Virus record (IMG/VR): IMGVR_UViG_2695420687_000006
DNA: 7,582 nt
Direction: 5' to 3' (one strand)
From: a virus
Taxonomy: Duplodnaviria > Heunggongvirae > Uroviricota > Caudoviricetes
A model generated the notes under the pieces. That model had not been told where the DNA came from, made no database searches, and was given only the letters and a program-made list of their open reading frames with translations. Numbering within the stretch: position 1 is the first letter of the stretch; each line of letters begins with the position of its first letter. A program made the position numbers and the translations under genes. Below are positions 1 to 7,582 of the stretch, piece by piece.

Positions 1-52
1 CGCATCAGTTCCGGCGCGCTGCCGTCAATGGTGAACAGGTCACGCGCCACGC

Positions 53-499
53 CTACCGCCAGTTCCGGGTAGCCGCTAATACTTCCGGATCGTAATCACG
101 ACCATCGCGGGGAGCTGGAATATGGCCCACTGCCTCCGCCACCATCTGCTCAAGCATCGGACGCACATCATCGGGGGTGATACTTTTGCCGTCCGCCGGT
201 ACCGGAATATTCGCAACCGCATCATTCACCGCCTGCTGCAGTACATCCGGATCATAATCACGACCATCACGCGGTACCGAAATGGCCCCCACAGCGTCAT
301 CCACCATCGCCTGCAGAACCGGACGCACCTCATCCACCGTCACATGCTTCTGTAATACCGCCGACAGGGAAGTCAGTTTCTCTTCAAACGCTTGTGCCTG
401 CGAGGCCATCTTCCCCTCAAATGTGCGCTGTAAATCCGCCAGCACCGTGGAGAATTCTTCACCCAGCGCACGGATAATGGACAGTTCACGCTCTGTCAT
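53..499 (-). CDS. hypothetical head-module protein, 148 aa, with N-terminal helical region and internally duplicated motif (DVRPxLxxMVxxAVGxIPxPRDGRDYDP)
   Basis: Complete 148-codon ORF. Its ATG (499..497) overlaps the portal stop codon (498..496) in an ATGA arrangement, suggesting translational coupling. Residues 56-84 and 110-138 are near-identical, with a shorter related unit between them. No family recognised by eye. Confidence 0.6.
   Translation of the reverse strand: MTERELSIIRALGEEFSTVLADLQRTFEGKMASQAQAFEEKLTSLSAVLQKHVTVDEVRPVLQAMVDDAVGAISVPRDGRDYDPDVLQQAVNDAVANIPVPADGKSITPDDVRPMLEQMVAEAVGHIPAPRDGRDYDPEVLAATRNWR
56..334. repeat. intragenic tandem duplication, about 162-bp period with about 81-bp sub-repeats
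   Basis: The DNA starting near 85 (ccggatcgtaatcacgaccatc...) recurs near 247 (ccggatcataatcacgaccatc...) and similarity continues for about 90 bp. This matches the 54-aa spacing of the repeated peptide motif on the minus strand. Confidence 0.6.
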
Positions 500-1860
500 T
501 TTCGCAGTATCCCCCTGAACATCGCCTTCACCGCATCACGCTCTGTTTCGCTTATGGCCTTATTACCGTCAGATGCGCCCTCCTGGCGTGTGCCTGACGA
601 CGTTTTCCCGGAAGACGCGAACGGATCCTCACGGGCATCACGACGGGACAGCGCCTCCAGACTGTAGTTCTGCTGCTGAAGATACAGTGCATCACCGCCG
701 GCAAGGGGCGGCAGGTTCTCACGTTTACGGGCCTCATTGGGCGTGAGAAGCGTATTTTTCACCGATTCACCCAGCGTTTTCATGCGACGTTCGCTGTCCA
801 TTCTCAGCAGCGTGGTGACGTCAAACTCCGTGCTCTCGTTTTCCCCTGTTTCCAGCGCCTCATCCAGTAACAGCTCAATGGACTCAATCAGCGTCTGCAG
901 ACACTGGGAATAATACTGCTGCTCCAGCGCCTCCACGTTGTCACTGGAAGGCGGCTGGCCAACGCCAATCTTGTAGGCCGGGACACGGAACACCGAACAG
1001 ACAATTTCAGCCGTCATCTTCAGTTGTTCCACCGTCTGCGCATCCACCGGTGAAAACGTCGTGGGGTTATATTTCGCCCCATTGCTCAGGATCGCCGTTT
1101 TCCCCGCATTTTCGCCGGTATACCCGCTGTCCCAGTTGCTCTTCAGTTTTTTCGCATTTTCTTCCGTTATACTGCCGGGGATCTCAATCACCCCGGACGG
1201 CCTGCCGCCATTTCTGAAAAAAGACGTTGAATTTGCCTGAATATGATGCCCCTGCGTGGCCGCCAGCCCGGCGGCATACACCGGCGGCAGCCCCACAAGC
1301 GGATGAAAAAAACAGTTAAACCGGTCGTGGATCACTTCCCGGGCAGGCACCGTCACCGCCTCCGTGATCCCGCAGTTCCGGTCCGGTGTAATGCGATAGA
1401 ACACCTCGCCGTCATCCGCCACCAGAGGTTCAACCCGGCTCCAGTCCAGAATACGCAGTTCTTTGATCTGCCCCCGGGAGTTACGGATTTTCAGCACCAC
1501 CGTATTGCCGTGACGCAGTTTGGCGTTCAGCCACAGTTCAAAAAACTGGATACGATTCTGCTGTGCATTGGGACGACGACAGAGACGGGCAATATCCCCC
1601 TGCCGTTTTTCACGGCGGATCCCCTGTGTATCGGTCTGCATCAGGCGCAGTCGCATTTTGGCGATATCCTGGGATATCAGCGAAATGCAAGAAAACACCG
1701 CATGAAAGGAGAGGACACTTTCCGGATCGGCTTTCACGCCCTGCTGCCAGGCACCGGCAAAAGGCTCAGCCACCGCCTGAAACAGGCTGGTCCAGCCCAC
1801 CTCTTTTACATCACGTCCTGATTTCTGGTTTTTTCGGGTTCGCCGCAAAAGGTTCCACAT
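496..1860 (-). CDS. phage portal protein (HK97-family-like)
   Basis: 454-aa ORF. The N-terminal segment ESVLSFHAVFSCISLISQDIAKMRLRL resembles the conserved N-terminal motif of HK97-type portals, and size and position fit a head module. ATG at 1860..1858 has GGAG 11-14 nt upstream and an in-frame TGA just upstream, so no longer form exists. Start codon could still be slightly downstream. Confidence 0.8.
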   Translation of the reverse strand: MWNLLRRTRKNQKSGRDVKEVGWTSLFQAVAEPFAGAWQQGVKADPESVLSFHAVFSCISLISQDIAKMRLRLMQTDTQGIRREKRQGDIARLCRRPNAQQNRIQFFELWLNAKLRHGNTVVLKIRNSRGQIKELRILDWSRVEPLVADDGEVFYRITPDRNCGITEAVTVPAREVIHDRFNCFFHPLVGLPPVYAAGLAATQGHHIQANSTSFFRNGGRPSGVIEIPGSITEENAKKLKSNWDSGYTGENAGKTAILSNGAKYNPTTFSPVDAQTVEQLKMTAEIVCSVFRVPAYKIGVGQPPSSDNVEALEQQYYSQCLQTLIESIELLLDEALETGENESTEFDVTTLLRMDSERRMKTLGESVKNTLLTPNEARKRENLPPLAGGDALYLQQQNYSLEALSRRDAREDPFASSGKTSSGTRQEGASDGNKAISETERDAVKAMFRGILRK

Positions 1861-2027
1861 TCGCCATGCTCCGCATCACGTTTCTTTTTCTGACCTGCCG
1901 GACGTCGCACTGTGATGTACTCCGCCTTCCCCAGGCGAACCAGCACCTCCGCACACGGCTGTGCCACATCACGGATATCCCCGGCCCGGGCATCATGCGT
2001 GCCCTGCAGATATCGGATCTTTGCCAT
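1806..2027 (-). CDS. hypothetical small protein (73 codons), doubtful
   Basis: The only ORF in the otherwise unexplained 212-bp gap between the capsid and portal genes. It begins 9 nt after a GC-rich stem-loop and its last 55 nt overlap the portal start in another frame. The Shine-Dalgarno is weak (AGG too close to the ATG) and no family is recognised. Confidence 0.25.
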   Translation of the reverse strand: MAKIRYLQGTHDARAGDIRDVAQPCAEVLVRLGKAEYITVRRPAGQKKKRDAEHGECGTFCGEPEKTRNQDVM

Positions 2028-2036
2028 AACCTGTTA

Positions 2037-2056
2037 CGGGAGGCGCACGCCTCCCG
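2037..2056 (-). other. GC-rich stem-loop (8-9 bp arms cgggaggcg / cgcctcccg) immediately downstream of the capsid gene stop
   Basis: Perfect inverted repeat read directly from the sequence. It is not followed by a U-tract on either strand, so it is not a canonical intrinsic terminator. It could be an RNA stability or processing element. Confidence 0.4.
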
Positions 2057-2071
2057 TCCTCCTCATCAGAC

Positions 2072-3433
2072 TCAGCCGCCGGACGCACTGCCGTAGTTCA
2101 CTCCTGTGATCACCGCCACCGCCGCAGTACGGCGACGACGCCAGTTGATCCAGCGCTCCGCACGGATGGCCACGCTGCCTGTCTGGAACATGGAAACCAG
2201 CTCCACCGGGGACGGCGTAGTACTGTCGCCGGTCGGTTCAGACTGCATCTCCAGTGACGCTTCACGGGACATATCCACCGCCACACCGCCGTCATCAGCC
2301 AGATAAATATCCGGCGCATTCACCAGCACCAGCTGGTCACCCACGTACTGGGAGACAATCACCGGCAGGCCCTGGAAGGTGCCGCCAAGCAGGGTCATGT
2401 CCGGGTATTCCTTCTGACCCAGCGCATTTTTACGCATGGACAGCGCCAGGGCATTCGTGCTGGACATCAGCCAGACAGCACCAGTGGGCTGCAGATTTGC
2501 CGTCACAAACTGGCCAAACGCGGCCTCGGCATCCGCATCCGGGTTACCGGTTGATGCCGTGCCCTTCACATCATGGGTGATGGACGCCGGGGAGACATCC
2601 GCCACCGCCGCTTTTTTCGGGTCCACAAAGTCTGTATCCAGACGCGCCACTACCGCTTCCGCCAGCGCATTACGGACCAGTGCATCAGCAGCCGGACTGG
2701 AAAAACGGATCAATTCTTCCGTCAGTACCGCAATGGCCGACACTTTCGCATGACTGAAGGTGATGGATTCAAAATCAAACTTCGTCAGGGGTTTTGCCTT
2801 ACCCTCACCCACCCAGCCGGCAGCACCGCCGGACACCTGGGCGTGCACACGGATATTGAACGGCACCTGACGAAGTGCAGGGATCCCGCCCTGACCAAAT
2901 CGCCCGATAATGGTCTGCGGACGCAGGTAATCAATAAAGTCCTGTGCGTATTCCTGATATTCAGACAGGCTGCCTGCCCACTGCGGATCCGTGGTGGTCC
3001 CCGCGCCCACTGCCGATTTCAGGACATGATGCAGACGACTGTCATCCGGATACTGACGACGGGCCACTTCCAGGGCTTCAGATCGGACGCCTTTAGCCGC
3101 AGCCAGCGATTTGGCAAAGCGGGCGAAGCCAATCCCCTTCTCCAGTTTCTGCTCCACACGGATCACCGGCGCTGAAGCCACCGCGGCCACATTCCCGTTA
3201 CCGGCCTGTTTCACCGGCTGCGCCGTGGCGGCCTTACCGGCTTCCAGTTCACGCAGGCGCTTCAGGTGCGCATCCACCTGACGGATTTCCGCTGCGGTGT
3301 TGTCGTAATGCTCTTCCTCCTCCACATCCAGCGTGCGCCCTTCCTCTGCGGCTTTGGTCATGACCTCCTCAAGGGAGGCTGCCAGCGCTGCACGCTTGTT
3401 TTCAAAACTTTTAATCTGTTCGCCAATATTCAT
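2072..3433 (-). CDS. candidate internally initiated major capsid protein (delta domain plus HK97-fold body, 453 aa), nested in frame in the protease-capsid ORF
   Basis: An in-frame ATG at 3433..3431 (Met193) is preceded by AAGGAA with about 9-nt spacing and lies exactly at the linker to delta-domain junction (MNIGEQIKSFENKRAAL...). Whether it is used cannot be decided from sequence. Confidence 0.35.
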   Translation of the reverse strand: MNIGEQIKSFENKRAALAASLEEVMTKAAEEGRTLDVEEEEHYDNTAAEIRQVDAHLKRLRELEAGKAATAQPVKQAGNGNVAAVASAPVIRVEQKLEKGIGFARFAKSLAAAKGVRSEALEVARRQYPDDSRLHHVLKSAVGAGTTTDPQWAGSLSEYQEYAQDFIDYLRPQTIIGRFGQGGIPALRQVPFNIRVHAQVSGGAAGWVGEGKAKPLTKFDFESITFSHAKVSAIAVLTEELIRFSSPAADALVRNALAEAVVARLDTDFVDPKKAAVADVSPASITHDVKGTASTGNPDADAEAAFGQFVTANLQPTGAVWLMSSTNALALSMRKNALGQKEYPDMTLLGGTFQGLPVIVSQYVGDQLVLVNAPDIYLADDGGVAVDMSREASLEMQSEPTGDSTTPSPVELVSMFQTGSVAIRAERWINWRRRRTAAVAVITGVNYGSASGG

Positions 3434-4009
3434 TATGGTCTTTTCCTTATGAAAAACGGTTGTTGACTGTGCCGCAGCGCCGGCAGAAGATGCGATTTTC
3501 ACCACCGGTTTCCGGTTGCCGGACGCGGCAGAAAACGGGCGGTCGAAAGATTTAATGGTCCGGATGGTGCATTCCGCATTCGCGGGCACGGTGACGGCAG
3601 ACACCTCCATCAGTTCCCAGCGCAGAAAATGCAGTCCGCCTCCGTCCAGAAAGGTGTATTCATGGGGACGGAAGCCCACGGACAGCCCCCTGACCAGCCC
3701 GGTCTTAATGGCCGCCCAGACCTCATCCAGCCGGGCTGCCATCTGGGAGGGCATCCCCGGCTCCGGCTTCACCAGCATTGCCGTGATTTCCAGCCCTTCC
3801 CTGACCCGACGCACCGTACACTGGCCTACAGGGCGGGAATGGTCATGCTGCCAGAGAAACGGGATCGTACTGCCAAACTCCGCCCCCTCCGGCTCCAGGA
3901 TGTCACCATCCCGATCCGGAGAAGGCGTTGACGCAATCCCGGTGATCACCCGTTCATCCTCACTGAAGGATTTCACCGTCAGCAGGGAACAGGCCCGTTT
4001 AAGAGTCAC
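2072..4009 (-). CDS. prohead serine protease (S78/U35-like N-terminal domain) fused in frame to an HK97-fold major capsid protein with scaffold-like delta region
   Basis: 645-aa ORF. The N-terminal 155 aa carry prohead-protease-like motifs (ITGIASTPSPDRDGDILEPEGAEF, IPFLWQHDHSRPVG, GLSVGFRP, EVSAVTVPANAECTI). An Ala/Ser-rich linker follows, then a charged helical region (EQIKSFENKRAALAASLEEV...LKRLRELEAGKA) typical of a capsid delta domain, then an HK97-type capsid body. GTG start at 4009..4007 with AGGAGG 5 nt upstream. Confidence 0.85.
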   Translation of the reverse strand: MTLKRACSLLTVKSFSEDERVITGIASTPSPDRDGDILEPEGAEFGSTIPFLWQHDHSRPVGQCTVRRVREGLEITAMLVKPEPGMPSQMAARLDEVWAAIKTGLVRGLSVGFRPHEYTFLDGGGLHFLRWELMEVSAVTVPANAECTIRTIKSFDRPFSAASGNRKPVVKIASSAGAAAQSTTVFHKEKTIMNIGEQIKSFENKRAALAASLEEVMTKAAEEGRTLDVEEEEHYDNTAAEIRQVDAHLKRLRELEAGKAATAQPVKQAGNGNVAAVASAPVIRVEQKLEKGIGFARFAKSLAAAKGVRSEALEVARRQYPDDSRLHHVLKSAVGAGTTTDPQWAGSLSEYQEYAQDFIDYLRPQTIIGRFGQGGIPALRQVPFNIRVHAQVSGGAAGWVGEGKAKPLTKFDFESITFSHAKVSAIAVLTEELIRFSSPAADALVRNALAEAVVARLDTDFVDPKKAAVADVSPASITHDVKGTASTGNPDADAEAAFGQFVTANLQPTGAVWLMSSTNALALSMRKNALGQKEYPDMTLLGGTFQGLPVIVSQYVGDQLVLVNAPDIYLADDGGVAVDMSREASLEMQSEPTGDSTTPSPVELVSMFQTGSVAIRAERWINWRRRRTAAVAVITGVNYGSASGG

Positions 4010-4020
4010 ATCAGCCTCCT

Positions 4021-4047
4021 GAAAATAAAAAAACCGCCGCAGCGGTT
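4021..4047 (-). terminator. candidate rho-independent terminator (minus strand) between terL and the capsid gene
   Basis: The minus-strand transcript reads AACCGC-UGCG-GCGGUU followed by UUUUUUAUUUU. This is a 6-bp stem with 4-nt loop and U-tract, sitting directly upstream of the capsid Shine-Dalgarno. The stem is short, so strength is uncertain. Confidence 0.45.
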
Positions 4048-4072
4048 CATGATGGTTACAGGGTGAGCAGGG

Positions 4073-5734
4073 TTATATGAAAAAAACCTCATACGCTTTC
4101 TTTTTCGGTTCCGGATTCAGGGACATCAGGGACACCGCATTGAAGAGCGCCATCAGCGGGTCAATTTTTCCCCGTCCGCTGGCCTGTTTGGTGATAAGAA
4201 TGGCGTTACCTTTAGGCTCCACCCGGGCATTGCCAACGCACCAGGCCATCAGTGGCTGACCACCATGCACCAGCACTCCCTCAGCCAGTTTGCGCTCGGT
4301 GGTTTTGATGGCCCCGCCCAGCTTCCAGCCCTGGCTTATCCCCACCACACTCTCATCGGGGATCCCGGCTTCCGCCAGTGAATCCAGAATCTGCCCCACA
4401 CCTGACGGGTCAATACCGATATGATCCAGTAACTCAGCCTCATGAATACGACGCACATACTCCGCCACTTCCGCCGTGTCATCCCCGACCCGACGGACAA
4501 TCGTCATGTCTCCACAGGCCACAAAATCCTGAAACCGGGATGCCTCACTCTTCCGTCTGACCACCGCGGTTTCATGCACCCAGGCATGGCCCCAGCCCAG
4601 CCATTCGCGGGTTTCCCTGTCACGGCCAGTCACGTACATTCCCAGCAGATCATCCAGGCCCCCGCCGTCAATCCCCACCGTCACCACATCAGCGCGCTGC
4701 AGGATATCGTCCAGGCTGACGCGCCTGCCCTGCTGCTCCCAGAAATCCGCGCCCGCCCAGCGGTCAGAACGCAGGGCAAGACCGATTTCCACATTGGCGT
4801 GTTTTGACATGAAGCCACGAAATGCTTCCTCACCAGCCTCCCGGGCTTTACGGTACTCCCGGTACAGAAAAGCCTCATCCACCGAATAACCGAGATTCGG
4901 ATTGACCATGGCGAGGTTTTCCATCAGCAGGTGAGCCCCGCTTTCCACCATTTCAGGAGGGTGTTCAAATATCACCGGCAGAAAGTGCGGATCATGAATT
5001 TTGCCGTCGCGCACATCCCGGGCGTACTGCAGTTTCTGTCTGAACACCCCGGCGGGCGGTTCATTCGACTGGGTGGTCGTATACACCACAAACCCTTCCG
5101 GGCGGGAGGCAAGGCCGCCTATGGCTTCACGTAACATGTCCTCCGCCTTGCACTGCTTGCCAAACAGCCACAACTCATCAATCAGCGTACCCACGGACTT
5201 GATACCAGACACCGTATTCGGATCGGCTGCCACCACCTTCAGGGTGGTGTCTGTCACCCTGTGGGTGATGGTCCGGATATGGGTCTGTACCTGGCAGAGG
5301 TCATCCAGATCATCGTCACGTCGTACCATATCCCGGGCAGGGTTGAAGGCGTTGGCCGCCACCTCCACAGTCGGGGCCAGAATCGTGTAACCCGCCGCCT
5401 GCCGCCAGTTCAGTAACAGCGCCGTCATCATGATCCCCGCGGCCAGCGTGGACTTCGAGTTTTTCTTGGGGATAAGGATAAAAACTTCCTTGATATGGCG
5501 TACACCGGTCTGCGCATCGTAGGAGCCAAACAGGGCCGCCACCAGGTCAAACACCCACGGTGCACAGGACTCCCCGAACGTCGGGCTACCAGGTGCATCC
5601 ACAATCCGCAGTTGTTTAAAAATCGCCAGGGCATGTGCGGCCTCGTCCGGATAAATCGGATCCGGAATAATCGACAGCCCCTTTTTCAGGCGCTCTGCCC
5701 AGTCCGGGCAGGCTGTGCTCCATACAGGTATCAT
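4073..5734 (-). CDS. terL: terminase large subunit (Terminase_1 / HK97-like family)
   Basis: 553-aa ORF. It has a Walker-A-like segment FILIPKKNSKSTLAAG, an ATPase coupling segment GTLIDELWLFG, and a C-terminal nuclease-like region (VTVGIDGGGLDD ... GRGKIDPLMALFNAV). ATG at 5734 overlaps the terS stop (ATGA), with GAGG 8 nt upstream. Confidence 0.9.
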   Translation of the reverse strand: MIPVWSTACPDWAERLKKGLSIIPDPIYPDEAAHALAIFKQLRIVDAPGSPTFGESCAPWVFDLVAALFGSYDAQTGVRHIKEVFILIPKKNSKSTLAAGIMMTALLLNWRQAAGYTILAPTVEVAANAFNPARDMVRRDDDLDDLCQVQTHIRTITHRVTDTTLKVVAADPNTVSGIKSVGTLIDELWLFGKQCKAEDMLREAIGGLASRPEGFVVYTTTQSNEPPAGVFRQKLQYARDVRDGKIHDPHFLPVIFEHPPEMVESGAHLLMENLAMVNPNLGYSVDEAFLYREYRKAREAGEEAFRGFMSKHANVEIGLALRSDRWAGADFWEQQGRRVSLDDILQRADVVTVGIDGGGLDDLLGMYVTGRDRETREWLGWGHAWVHETAVVRRKSEASRFQDFVACGDMTIVRRVGDDTAEVAEYVRRIHEAELLDHIGIDPSGVGQILDSLAEAGIPDESVVGISQGWKLGGAIKTTERKLAEGVLVHGGQPLMAWCVGNARVEPKGNAILITKQASGRGKIDPLMALFNAVSLMSLNPEPKKKAYEVFFI

Positions 5735-6294
5735 CCGCTTTCCTCATTATCGTTATTCACCACCAGTCGGGGTGGCGGTGGCACCGCAAAACGGTTAGCC
5801 GCTTTTTTCGCGGCATCACCTTTTGCCGATTTTTTCCCGGTATCCCCTTTTTTATGGTGCGTGAACTGCGCCAGACGCCAGGCCGCATCCAGTGCCAGTT
5901 TCGGATCAATGCAGAGGTTTTCCACCAGGATCCGCCCCATGGCTTTCACCGGATCGGGAAGACCATCCTCCATATATTCAATACCAGGAGACATCACCGC
6001 GGACGGTGGCATCTCCGGATTGTTTTCGTCCGGCTGTGGTATTGCAGCCGCCTCACGGCGACGGGGTTTATCCTCCTGCTCTGATTTTTTCTGCCGGTAA
6101 ACAGGAACCTCATCCACCTCCACCGTCTCGCATTGTTTACGGGCTATAAACGCAAGCACCTCCGGATCTTTTGCCAGCTGCGAGCCTTTAACCCTGGCGG
6201 TCTTCGCCGAATAACCAGCGGCAATGGCTGACGCTGTTTTGTTTTTCCCGGACATGAGCGCCAGCGCAAATTTTCGTTTTTGCGTTGTCAGCAC
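5731..6294 (-). CDS. terS: terminase small subunit (N-terminal HTH resembling the Terminase_2 / SPP1 G1P-type motif)
   Basis: 187-aa ORF. The N-terminus LTTQKRKFALALMSGKNKTASAIAAGYSAKTARVKGSQLAKDPEV matches the LTxKQxxF...NxTxAAxxAGYSxKxAxxxGxxLxxxPxV pattern of small terminase DNA-binding domains. GTG start at 6294..6292 with GGGAGGAGG immediately upstream. It sits directly upstream of terL and overlaps it. Confidence 0.75.
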   Translation of the reverse strand: MLTTQKRKFALALMSGKNKTASAIAAGYSAKTARVKGSQLAKDPEVLAFIARKQCETVEVDEVPVYRQKKSEQEDKPRRREAAAIPQPDENNPEMPPSAVMSPGIEYMEDGLPDPVKAMGRILVENLCIDPKLALDAAWRLAQFTHHKKGDTGKKSAKGDAAKKAANRFAVPPPPRLVVNNDNEESG

Positions 6295-6366
6295 AGCCTC
6301 CTCCCGGGTCCAGAACGCACTCAGCCGGGTATGGTTCAGCCCATTTTTCCCGGCGTCTCATGCCGC

Positions 6367-6493
6367 AAATGTTAACTGCTGCCTGGTTAACATTTGCTGA
6401 AAAAGCCAGTTAACATTTTTTCCGCACAACAAACTGAATAATAAAGATAAAAACCGCAAAAATGCCCGGGCAGCCAGTTAACATGTTAACTGC
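6367..6493. repeat. cluster of GTTAAC-core inverted repeats including an 18-bp perfect palindrome; candidate cos / terminase or regulator binding region
   Basis: The half-site CAGTTAACAT (or its reverse complement ATGTTAACTG) occurs at 6369-6378, 6385-6393 (degenerate) and 6407-6416. At 6475-6492 it forms the perfect palindrome CAGTTAACATGTTAACTG. An AT-rich spacer lies at 6417-6465. The cluster sits in the non-coding region between the HNH and terS genes. Confidence 0.4.
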
Positions 6494-6582
6494 CCTGAAA
6501 CGGGAATTTTTTCTCTGCGTGAGAGGGGGCGCGGTGTCCGGAGCGATCGTTTTTTACGCCGGATGATACCCCCCCGCTCGGG

Positions 6583-6948
6583 TTACAGTCCGATGATGTC
6601 GTCCGCTCTGCCACTACCTCCGGACACCTCCGGCAGCGTCGGGTCCGGCATACCACCCGCCGCTTCACGAGCAGACTTTTGTCGATGGCATTCGGTACAG
6701 AGCGTCCAGAGATTCGTCTCCTCATTACCACCACCGAACTGAAGTGCAATGCGGTGATCGAGTTCACTGTCACAGAGGTCAACCACACGACCACAGAGAC
6801 AGCACTGCCCGGCATCCCTGAGCCAGATATGACGCTTGAGGGAAACACGTGCACTGCCACTGACACGACGCTGTTCACCCTTCAGAATATTCACCCGTCG
6901 GGTATTCAGTGTTTTGATTCTGCTCTGGAGTGTACGAAGCTCAGCCAT
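6583..6948 (-). CDS. HNH endonuclease (phage packaging-associated)
   Basis: 121-aa ORF with a canonical HNH motif: CCLCG ... LDH ... NEETNLWTLCTECH (C-x2-C, D-H, N, C-x2-C-H). It lies immediately upstream of terS and terL, as in HK97-like cos phages. Confidence 0.9.
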   Translation of the reverse strand: MAELRTLQSRIKTLNTRRVNILKGEQRRVSGSARVSLKRHIWLRDAGQCCLCGRVVDLCDSELDHRIALQFGGGNEETNLWTLCTECHRQKSAREAAGGMPDPTLPEVSGGSGRADDIIGL

Positions 6949-6989
6949 GTAAAATCCCCGTCATATGGCAATCAGTAAAGGAAATAAAT

Positions 6990-7190
6990 ATGTCATCGAA
7001 AAACCGGACCCGCAGAACCACAACCCGCAATATCCGTTTCCCCAATCACATGATTGAACAGATCAATATCGCCCTTGAACATAAAGGTTCCGGTAACTTT
7101 TCAGCGTGGGTTATTGAAGCCTGCAGGAGAAGGCTGGCAACAGATGCAACGCATCTGCGTCCGGCCAGCATGACAAATAACGAGAAATGA
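6990..7190 (+). CDS. small ribbon-helix-helix-like DNA-binding protein (66 aa), resembling YlcI/YnfO-type small prophage proteins
   Basis: ATG at 6990 with AAGGA about 8 nt upstream. The pattern RNIRFPNHMIEQINIALEHKGSGNFSAWVIEACRRRL fits a beta-strand plus two helices. The longer track ORF from 6930 would overlap the HNH start and lacks a ribosome-binding site, so the 6990 start is preferred. The family resemblance is from memory and unverified. Confidence 0.55.
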   Translation: MSSKNRTRRTTTRNIRFPNHMIEQINIALEHKGSGNFSAWVIEACRRRLATDATHLRPASMTNNEK

Positions 7191-7321
7191 ACGTTCGGTT
7201 ACAGGAGCAGGCACCCACTGTCCTCCAACAATATTTCATCTTCATACCCGGCGGAACAAGACTTACCCAGCCGGAATGTACAGAATAACAACAGAGTGAT
7301 AATTAATTTCTGATGAAATAA

Positions 7322-7582
7322 TCAGGGTGCAGAAGGACTAAAGATAAACGTTTTCTTCACGCCTTTACGCGGCCTATCCTTCTCAAATCGCCATTTTGCC
7401 ATCGCCTTTACAACCTGCTCATCAAACAGATGGTGCGGCTCTGAACGGATAAACTCAATTCGGGTAACAGTACAAAGCCCACGTAACGGGCGCAATATAA
7501 ATACTCCTGTCGAGTGAATTATTTTTTGTTTATGATCAAGTTCACATCTTTTTTGATGCTTGCATGAACCAGAAGAAGGGGA
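7322..7582 (-). CDS. hypothetical protein, 5'-partial at window edge (or 57-aa protein from TTG at 7495)
   Basis: The minus-strand frame is open from the window edge to TGA at 7324..7322 (87 stop-free codons in an AT-rich region). An internal TTG at 7495..7493 is preceded by AGGAG with 8-nt spacing. C-terminal sequence is ...HHLFDEQVVKAMAKWRFEKDRPRKGVKKTFIFSPSAP. No family recognised. Confidence 0.3.
   Translation of the reverse strand, partial: SPSSGSCKHQKRCELDHKQKIIHSTGVFILRPLRGLCTVTRIEFIRSEPHHLFDEQVVKAMAKWRFEKDRPRKGVKKTFIFSPSAP

Follow-up and report, generated by a model that had tools for sequence, protein, structure and literature searches.

Does a compact block of phage head genes in an unusual order belong to a complete tailed phage, or to a satellite that builds its own capsids and borrows the tails of a helper? 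The question is raised by the IMG/VR virus record IMGVR_UViG_2695420687_000006, a stretch of 7582 bp (hereafter the window), which by exact-protein look-up is the entire draft contig CDRK01000061.1 of assembly GCA_000936005.1. On its minus strand lie, in order of transcription, an HNH endonuclease gene (positions 6583–6948), the small and large terminase subunit genes terS (5731–6294) and terL (4073–5734), a single open reading frame (ORF) of 645 amino acids (aa) that joins a prohead protease to a capsid protein (2072–4009), a 73-aa ORF (1806–2027), a portal gene (496–1860), and the 5′ part of a repeat-protein gene, here called gene X; each of them is supported by family searches. The family set expected of an HK97-like module (portal, S78 protease and HK97-fold capsid protein) is thus present, while the canonical order, with terS, terL, portal, protease and capsid as separate genes, is not found in the window. 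The initial annotation had described the order HNH, terS, terL, protease-capsid, portal, with the protease-capsid gene placed between terL and the portal, and both points are borne out by the ORF calls and family searches. It had offered two explanations for that order, a distinct lineage of cos phages or a capsid-forming satellite. We conclude with high confidence that the window holds the genes with which a temperate, long-tailed lambdoid phage of Escherichia coli packages its DNA from cos and assembles its head, and that this phage is of the group to which BP-4795, JLK-2012, 1717, 2851 and Lys8385Vzw belong.

Lambdoid relatives of the module and the satellite question

Homology with phage relatives is confined to positions 80–7473. 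Over this span, 1117 of 5426 complete E. coli genomes contain prophages with 96–98% identity to the window, and the same level is reached by 90 phage records, the majority of them from Shiga toxin (Stx)-converting phages of the Stx1a, Stx2a and Stx2c types. JLK-2012 matches 98% of the window at 96.4% identity, and Lys8385Vzw matches positions 228–7473 at 96% (96.35% over 228–6523). The late-region head block accordingly shows both high identity and synteny with the Marienburgvirus/Pankowvirus-like group. Lys8385Vzw was induced with mitomycin C, plaque-purified and found to carry a long non-contractile tail (PMC7946995); on its gene map a full tail set comes after the same series of genes.

The flanks of the module in these relatives are those of an ordinary temperate phage, with lysis genes on one side and connector and tail genes on the other, within lambdoid genomes of 50–60 kb. 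Downstream of the module, both JLK-2012 and E. coli NZRM4169 carry a complete set of connector and tail genes, namely those for a gp6-like adaptor, head completion or closure proteins, an HK97 gp10-like protein and a tail completion or terminator protein, and then for an Ig-decorated tail tube protein, chaperones, a tape measure protein, L, K, I and J, Lom and tail fibres. Spanin, endolysin and holin genes precede the module in both; further upstream JLK-2012 carries Q, O/P and cI/cro, and the early region of NZRM4169 differs. BP-4795 and 2851 have the same map, as does the Stx2c phage 1717 except for an IS629 inserted in terL (locus L120, 5645–6955). By analogy with the nine relatives whose flanks are readable, the connector and tail genes of the window's own phage would lie beyond the contig end.

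A capsid-forming phage-inducible chromosomal island (cf-PICI), which would make small capsids of its own, package itself and take the tails of a helper phage, has to be weighed against this reading. According to the published criteria, a cf-PICI is an island of 10–18 kb with an integrase or recombinase, regulation and replication modules and its own packaging genes, and with no lysis genes or complete tail module. The packaging part of this description fits, because the window holds the listed cf-PICI genes HNH, terS, terL, portal, protease and capsid, with adaptor and connector outside the window and following in relatives; protease-capsid fusions are moreover known in Firmicutes cf-PICIs, and the contig lacks tail genes. 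The same packaging set, however, is common to HK97-like phages and therefore does not discriminate between phage and cf-PICI, and a short draft contig that lacks a tail, above all one whose end falls in a tandem repeat, gives no ground for assuming a satellite. Against the satellite stand the remaining features. No integrase or recombinase, no regulator (AlpA, MerR or Stl) and no primase-replicase was found in the window, and no integrase, AlpA or primase-replicase in the regions read beside the module in relatives, where the early region of JLK-2012 (L001) is lambda-like with cI, cro, O, P and Q. Immediately before the module come genes of the lysis cassette, seen as a phrog_1267 fragment in the window and as Rz in a sister contig from another assembly (L003, described below). 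Connector genes are contiguous downstream in nine of the nine closest relatives with readable flanks (L001, L002, L007–L010, L109, L119 and L121), and a tail set is present in all five that could be read far enough, through to the tail fibres in L001, L002 and L109 and at least to the tape measure in L007 and L010. Tails and holins are both forbidden cf-PICI components in SatelliteFinder. As for size, the window itself is a 7.6-kb contig with unreliable ends, and the phage records that carry the module are mostly 44–65 kb long, with a few partial or of about 90 kb, not 10–18 kb. A satellite origin is hence highly improbable, and the flank comparison that the initial annotation had proposed as decisive comes out, in relatives, on the side of a complete phage.

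The other explanation it had offered, a distinct lineage of cos phages, is supported. The order (HNH), terS, terL, fusion, small ORF, portal and gene X, then connectors and tail, is kept in all relatives inspected in a survey that combined exact-protein look-ups with a scan of species-representative genomes. It occurs in Salmonella and Hafnia prophages, in genomes of Enterobacter, Atlantibacter, Kosakonia, Pantoea and Arsenophonus, and also in the alphaproteobacteria Chelatococcus and Pelagibacterium. Since the order is kept across genera, it represents a conserved signature of a broad HK97-related lineage and not a local rearrangement, and Lys8385Vzw, a close member, has been shown to be a cos phage (PMC7946995). 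The comparison with close homologs also gives the same order, which is the norm for the annotated Stx-phage group. In the BP-4795 record, the gene that separates terL from the portal is already labelled “putative major head protein/prohead protease”; the arrangement was therefore already known, and the gene order is not new but has been the norm of an annotated group since BP-4795, for about two decades.

The cos site and the protease-capsid fusion

The packaging end of the module can be placed by homology with Lys8385Vzw, for which PhageTerm assigned a cos type with 3′ cohesive ends and the site CGCCCCCCCT (PMC7946995). The first base of the Lys8385Vzw record aligns with window position 6523, and the sequence CGCGCCCCCT at 6524–6533 on the minus strand is therefore the homologous cos, predicted as the cleavage site here; 9 of its 10 bases are identical to CGCCCCCCCT, the physical end of the Lys8385Vzw genome. 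The cohesive ends were measured only in this 96%-identical relative. Lys8385Vzw has been shown to have its genome cut at cos, between HNH and terS, with 3′ cohesive ends, and to yield infectious siphovirus particles. An IS110-family element, ISEc20, abuts a position equivalent to about window 6573, some 40 nt from cos, in PPompW prophages.

Between cos and terS, at 6369–6490, five copies of ATGTTAAC occur in both orientations, compared with 0.13 expected, and none of 200 shuffled sequences reached five; inverted and direct repeat families were both detected, and the ATGTTAAC-bearing sequence is also found at the left end of the Lys8385Vzw genome. These copies are probably TerS recognition sites, comparable to cosB. 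The terS product (187 aa) matches PF03592 at 36 bits (cut-off 26.1) and phrog_641 (E = 1.8e-68), and the terL product (553 aa) has both ATPase and nuclease domains, with PF03354 and PF20441 above their cut-offs and matches to phrog_9 and phrog_7622. The 121-aa HNH endonuclease matches PF01844 at 29.6 bits (cut-off 21.4) and phrog_589 (E = 8e-45), and its gene is labelled HNH endonuclease or DNase in phage records. The HNH gene, the cos homolog and terS lie side by side, with terL following, as in the HK97-like module, and HNH genes beside cos and terminase genes are a pattern described for many phages (PMC3592412). Judging from these families, TerS would bind the ATGTTAAC repeats beside cos, and TerL, probably assisted by the HNH nuclease as in HK97, would cleave cos and pump the DNA through the HK97-type portal.

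The fusion ORF that follows terL (2072–4009, minus strand) comprises an S78 prohead protease at about residues 1–160, a variable linker, a delta-domain-like helical region starting from Met193, and an HK97-fold capsid protein. Peptidase_S78 (PF04586) covers residues 48–152 with 33.6 bits (cut-off 21), Phage_capsid (PF05065) covers residues 386–635, and the HK97 major capsid protein model TIGR01554 covers residues 204–584 with 78.9 bits against a cut-off of 27.5; phrog_617 spans the full length. Among the models of the HK97-like set, TIGR01543, a stricter one for the protease, stayed below its cut-off (45.3 against 59). The fusion protein matches 1190 representatives of 50%-identity clusters with E ≤ 1e-30; of the 150 best matches, the majority are themselves full-length fusions, 630–680 aa long. 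A sequence search against the PDB gave no close structure for the fusion (best E = 0.0015). By analogy with its families, the shell would be built from a single ORF that supplies a gp4-like S78 protease, a gp5-like delta-domain-like scaffold and an HK97-fold capsid protein, and after assembly the protease would remove itself and the scaffold region by self-cleavage.

A further product may arise from the same ORF. The ATG of Met193 (3431–3433, minus strand) is invariant, and the pair Met193-Asn194 is retained in 26 homologs while the preceding linker varies. A purine run resembling a Shine-Dalgarno (SD) sequence (AAGGA, GGAGG or AGAGG) stands 5′ of this ATG in 10 of 10 lineages, although the amino acids that it encodes differ; it reads AAGGA in E. 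coli and GAAGGAGGG in Chelatococcus. The anti-SD pairing energy at Met193, from −5.3 to −12.2 kcal/mol, is comparable to that at the starts of terL, portal and HNH. In addition, four unfused capsid proteins of the representative library (P0316, P0346, P0373 and P0382) begin at query residues 193–194. These comparative observations suggest that a protease-free capsid protein, consisting of delta-domain and capsid, is also translated from Met193 inside the fusion ORF, and that much of the capsid protein is probably made in this form. If true, such a start would solve the problem of protease-to-capsid stoichiometry.

The portal and gene X

The portal gene (496–1860, minus strand) encodes a 454-aa protein of the HK97 family, with 272 bits to PF04860 and 355.9 bits to TIGR01537 (cut-off 112), and its sequence matches in the PDB include 8cez (“Portal protein”, E = 1e-20). 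Its start is overlapped by 55 nt by the 73-aa ORF (1806–2027, minus strand), which belongs to phrog_829, a family of unknown function (E = 2e-39). No Pfam, NCBIfam or PDB sequence match was obtained for this small protein, and tblastn found it at the same position with 53–61% identity in Salmonella, Hafnia, Enterobacter, Atlantibacter and Kosakonia. In Chelatococcus a different small ORF fills the slot.

Directly after the portal, from Gammaproteobacteria to Alphaproteobacteria, comes gene X. The initial annotation had noted a repeat protein here in place of connector genes. The repeat ORF is indeed present, called at 53–499 as 148 aa, but it is incomplete, and the lack of connectors reflects the end of the contig: homology with every relative ends at position 80, the remaining 79 nt being those of the chromosomal gene fixC, and the phage-derived part (80–499, minus strand; phrog_8767 and phrog_2271) contains the N-terminal helix and the first 54-aa repeats only. 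The full product has 407 aa in JLK-2012 (L001, 19197–20420), and complete copies in IMG/VR range from 245 to 569 aa, mostly in steps of 54 aa, equal to the 162-nt repeats. Tandem Repeats Finder missed the 162-bp repeats in the window because fewer than two copies survive there. Further gene X loci are found at 13820–14692 of L117 and 13491–14375 of L010.

The complete product of gene X has a long N-terminal helix, a stalk, which in E. coli consists of 54-aa repeats, and a beta-rich C-terminal domain. With CBM_5_12 the C-terminal domain of Hafnia reaches 28.5 bits, above the Pfam cut-off, whereas those of E. coli, Salmonella and Chelatococcus do not attain the cut-off. Collagen triple-helix repeats (PF01391, 59 bits) take the place of the 54-aa repeats in the Chelatococcus stalk. 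Judged by its architecture only, gene X would encode a fibre-like protein, anchored by its helix, extended by the repeat stalk and tipped with a CBM5/12-like domain. A sequence search against the PDB returned no close structure for gene X, and an AlphaFold2 model of the homolog P0124 (353 aa, from an alignment of 10 sequences) had a mean predicted local distance difference test score (pLDDT) of 39.8, too poor for a fold search. Sub-threshold Pfam matches of gene X to TetR_C_35, FliG_N and DUF4244 were dismissed as noise from repeats and helices.

The portal and gene X are closely linked at the nucleotide level. In E. coli as well as in distant relatives, the ATG of gene X overlaps the portal stop codon (ATGA, 496–499), and near the 3′ end of the portal gene lies a tract of five Gs (G5; 511–515, minus strand). 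With five Gs the portal ends at the stop codon at 496–498 and the two genes are split, while with six (G6) portal and gene X become one ORF of 859 aa; the fused proteins read ...AMFRGDTEKMTERELS.... Exact queries of 30–31 nt for G5 and G6 gave 5 and 0 matches in the phage records; since the upstream flank varies, pattern scans of IMG/VR were used instead, and these found 57 split loci with G5 and 41 fused loci with G6. Among the named phages, 2851 has the G6 fused form with a portal coding sequence of 2580 nt, 1717 and JLK-2012 have G5 and split genes, and BP-4795 and Lys8385Vzw have split genes without the searched G-tract motif. Other genera carry AGAGGA at the position of the G tract, and the split form is therefore ancestral. 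The G5/G6 state mostly tracks the flanking haplotype, with only 3 of 33 haplotypes mixed, and the idea of the tract as a hypermutable switch for phase variation was rejected on that ground. PGAP labels the split form as a frameshifted portal.

Two further genes accompany the module outside the head genes. A small protein of the YlcI/YnfO family (DUF3950) is encoded on the plus strand at 6990–7190 (PF13132, 71 bits; NF041551) and stands at the same position in JLK-2012, BP-4795 and Lys8385Vzw; it is phage context and lies outside the head module. At 7322–7495 on the minus strand, a TonB_C-like phage protein is represented by its C-terminal portion, which matches phrog_1267 of the lysis category (E = 9e-25) and TonB_C weakly in Pfam; the gene is cut at about 7473 and is whole (108 aa) in L003, JLK-2012 and NZRM4169. 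Rfam at gathering thresholds gave no match in the window, and neither the promoter scan (2 found, 3.8 expected) nor the terminator scan (6 found, 6.9 expected) rose above chance. Among the terminator-like signals, whose count is at chance level, a hairpin with a T run occupies 4031–4048 (minus strand) in the 63-nt gap between terL and the fusion, and after the stop codon of the fusion a 9-bp GC hairpin without a T run lies at 2036–2057 (minus strand; z-score −1.5).

The window's own copy and comparison with known systems

Both tips of the window are short pieces of core-chromosome loci, unrelated ones, that abut the phage DNA abruptly. Positions 1–79 are a fragment of fixC, with 98.7% identity to fixC in 4017 E. 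coli genomes; L001 and L002, two of the phage relatives, gave no match to it. Positions 7474–7582 resemble the ydfZ-rspR intergenic region, the match spanning 7467–7582 with 91–94% identity in 5329 E. coli genomes. One may ask whether these joins are real, that is, whether deletion or rearrangement brought gene X up against fixC, and the TonB-like gene up against the ydfZ-rspR spacer, leaving a stranded 7.4-kb prophage remnant whose tail and lysis genes are lost. Such a remnant would concern the state of the window's own copy, not the kind of element it derives from. It gains support from the sister contig L003, which is 99.99% identical over positions 1–7473 and reproduces the fixC junction at 79/80 base for base, and from the richness of O157-type E. 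coli genomes in defective prophages of this kind, a single genome having as many as 23 matching places; that neither junction occurs in any of the 5426 complete E. coli genomes searched has likewise been counted in its favor. Yet a unique true junction would not make both contigs end, as they do, just 79 nt into fixC, and the two assemblies differ at the other end, since beyond about 7473 L003 continues with intact phage genes (TonB-like and Rz) up to eda and edd where the window has the ydfZ-rspR sequence. L003 also shows, at 950–1300, runs of N and joined pieces of about 50–140 nt from purT and an ABC-transporter ATPase gene, abutting a phage antirepressor gene; this patchwork indicates that assembly in these data was of low quality or chimeric, and it speaks for chimeric joins made in the assembly pipeline. 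The break, moreover, is located where other short-read contigs break, as eight whole IMG/VR contigs with the module stop 313–459 nt beyond the portal G tract, inside the 162-bp tandem repeats, and the phage part of the window stops 431 nt beyond it. All six head and packaging ORFs are intact in the window. Contig tips in assemblies of this kind can be chimeric, and the tips of the window are probably assembly chimeras, a short-read break within the 162-bp repeats being the simplest reading; the connector genes seem to be missing because the contig breaks inside these repeats of the post-portal gene. We therefore regard the remnant as unlikely, although it deserves far more weight than the satellite.

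Some points do weigh against the assignment of the window to a long-tailed lambdoid phage, or against parts of the scheme drawn from it. The window itself has no tail, connector or lysogeny gene, so that the state of its own copy is not directly readable, and it carries phage-chromosome joins at both tips, fixC at one and the ydfZ-rspR spacer at the other, of which the fixC junction recurs in a second assembly and might thus reflect a real deletion. Four elements of the scheme are deduced rather than measured, namely the TerS sites, the role of HNH, the processing of the fusion by its own protease and the internal start. In enterobacteria the SD signal before the internal ATG is only moderate, ranking in the top 12–18% of ATGs, and the Met193 start is therefore put forward as an inference.

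With these points considered, the block is no new satellite but the usual head module in the late region of lambdoid E. coli prophages, among them many with Shiga toxin genes. A small follow-up may still be worthwhile on the candidate nested capsid start, the fusion or coupling of portal and gene X at the G tract, and the fibre-like gene X; about one in five complete E. coli genomes carries this head type, whose closest match to a solved capsid is marginal. Tentatively, and with more doubt than conviction, we raise the possibility that this widespread module follows an assembly plan not yet described. In such a plan the capsid would be made both as a protease-scaffold-capsid polyprotein and protease-free from Met193, and translation of the portal would be coupled to that of a fibre-like protein whose stalk consists of repeats or collagen and whose tip resembles CBM5/12; in some E. 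coli phages, including 2851, one extra G in the tract joins this protein to the C-terminus of the portal.

Among known systems, the Marienburgvirus and Pankowvirus Stx phages together with the O157-type prophages are the closest by sequence and synteny, and HK97 is the closest by mechanism. BP-4795 and JLK-2012 (Marienburgvirus), 1717 and 2851 (Pankowvirus), Lys8385Vzw and the Stx1a and Stx2c prophages are 93–98% identical in nucleotide sequence over positions 80–7473, and they share with the window the order YlcI, HNH, cos, terS, terL, fusion, 73-aa ORF, portal and gene X. The window differs from this group in that its copy is cut in gene X and in the TonB-like gene by the chromosomal junctions, which makes the number of repeats in gene X unreadable, and its cos differs from that of Lys8385Vzw at one base in ten. 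The HK97 module consists of gp74 (HNH), gp1 (terS), gp2 (terL), gp3 (portal), gp4 (protease) and gp5 (capsid protein). With it the window has in common an HNH gene beside cos and the terminase genes, a portal of TIGR01537, an S78 protease, and a capsid protein of TIGR01554 with an N-terminal delta-like region; cos packaging with 3′ cohesive ends is likewise seen in the close relative Lys8385Vzw. Unlike in HK97, protease and capsid form one ORF, which stands before the portal rather than after it, and the portal is flanked by the conserved 73-aa ORF and the predicted fibre-like gene X. The cf-PICIs, such as EcCIEDL933, share the HK97-derived packaging set of HNH, terS, terL, portal, protease, capsid, adaptor and connector, but they are islands of 10–18 kb with an integrase, a regulator and a primase-replicase, none of which is seen beside the module in the relatives of the window, and the small T=4 capsids of EcCIEDL933 do not hold for these relatives either. 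The NCBIfam model NF045541 likewise describes a protease fused to a major capsid protein; the window's fusion scores 53.9 bits against its cut-off of 525, over residues 49–289 only, and is by this score of a different family. Nested in-frame head genes are exemplified by C and Nu3 of lambda, where a shorter assembly protein is made from an in-frame start within the protease gene. In the window, by comparison, the nested product would be the capsid protein itself, with a candidate start that is suggested by sequence conservation.

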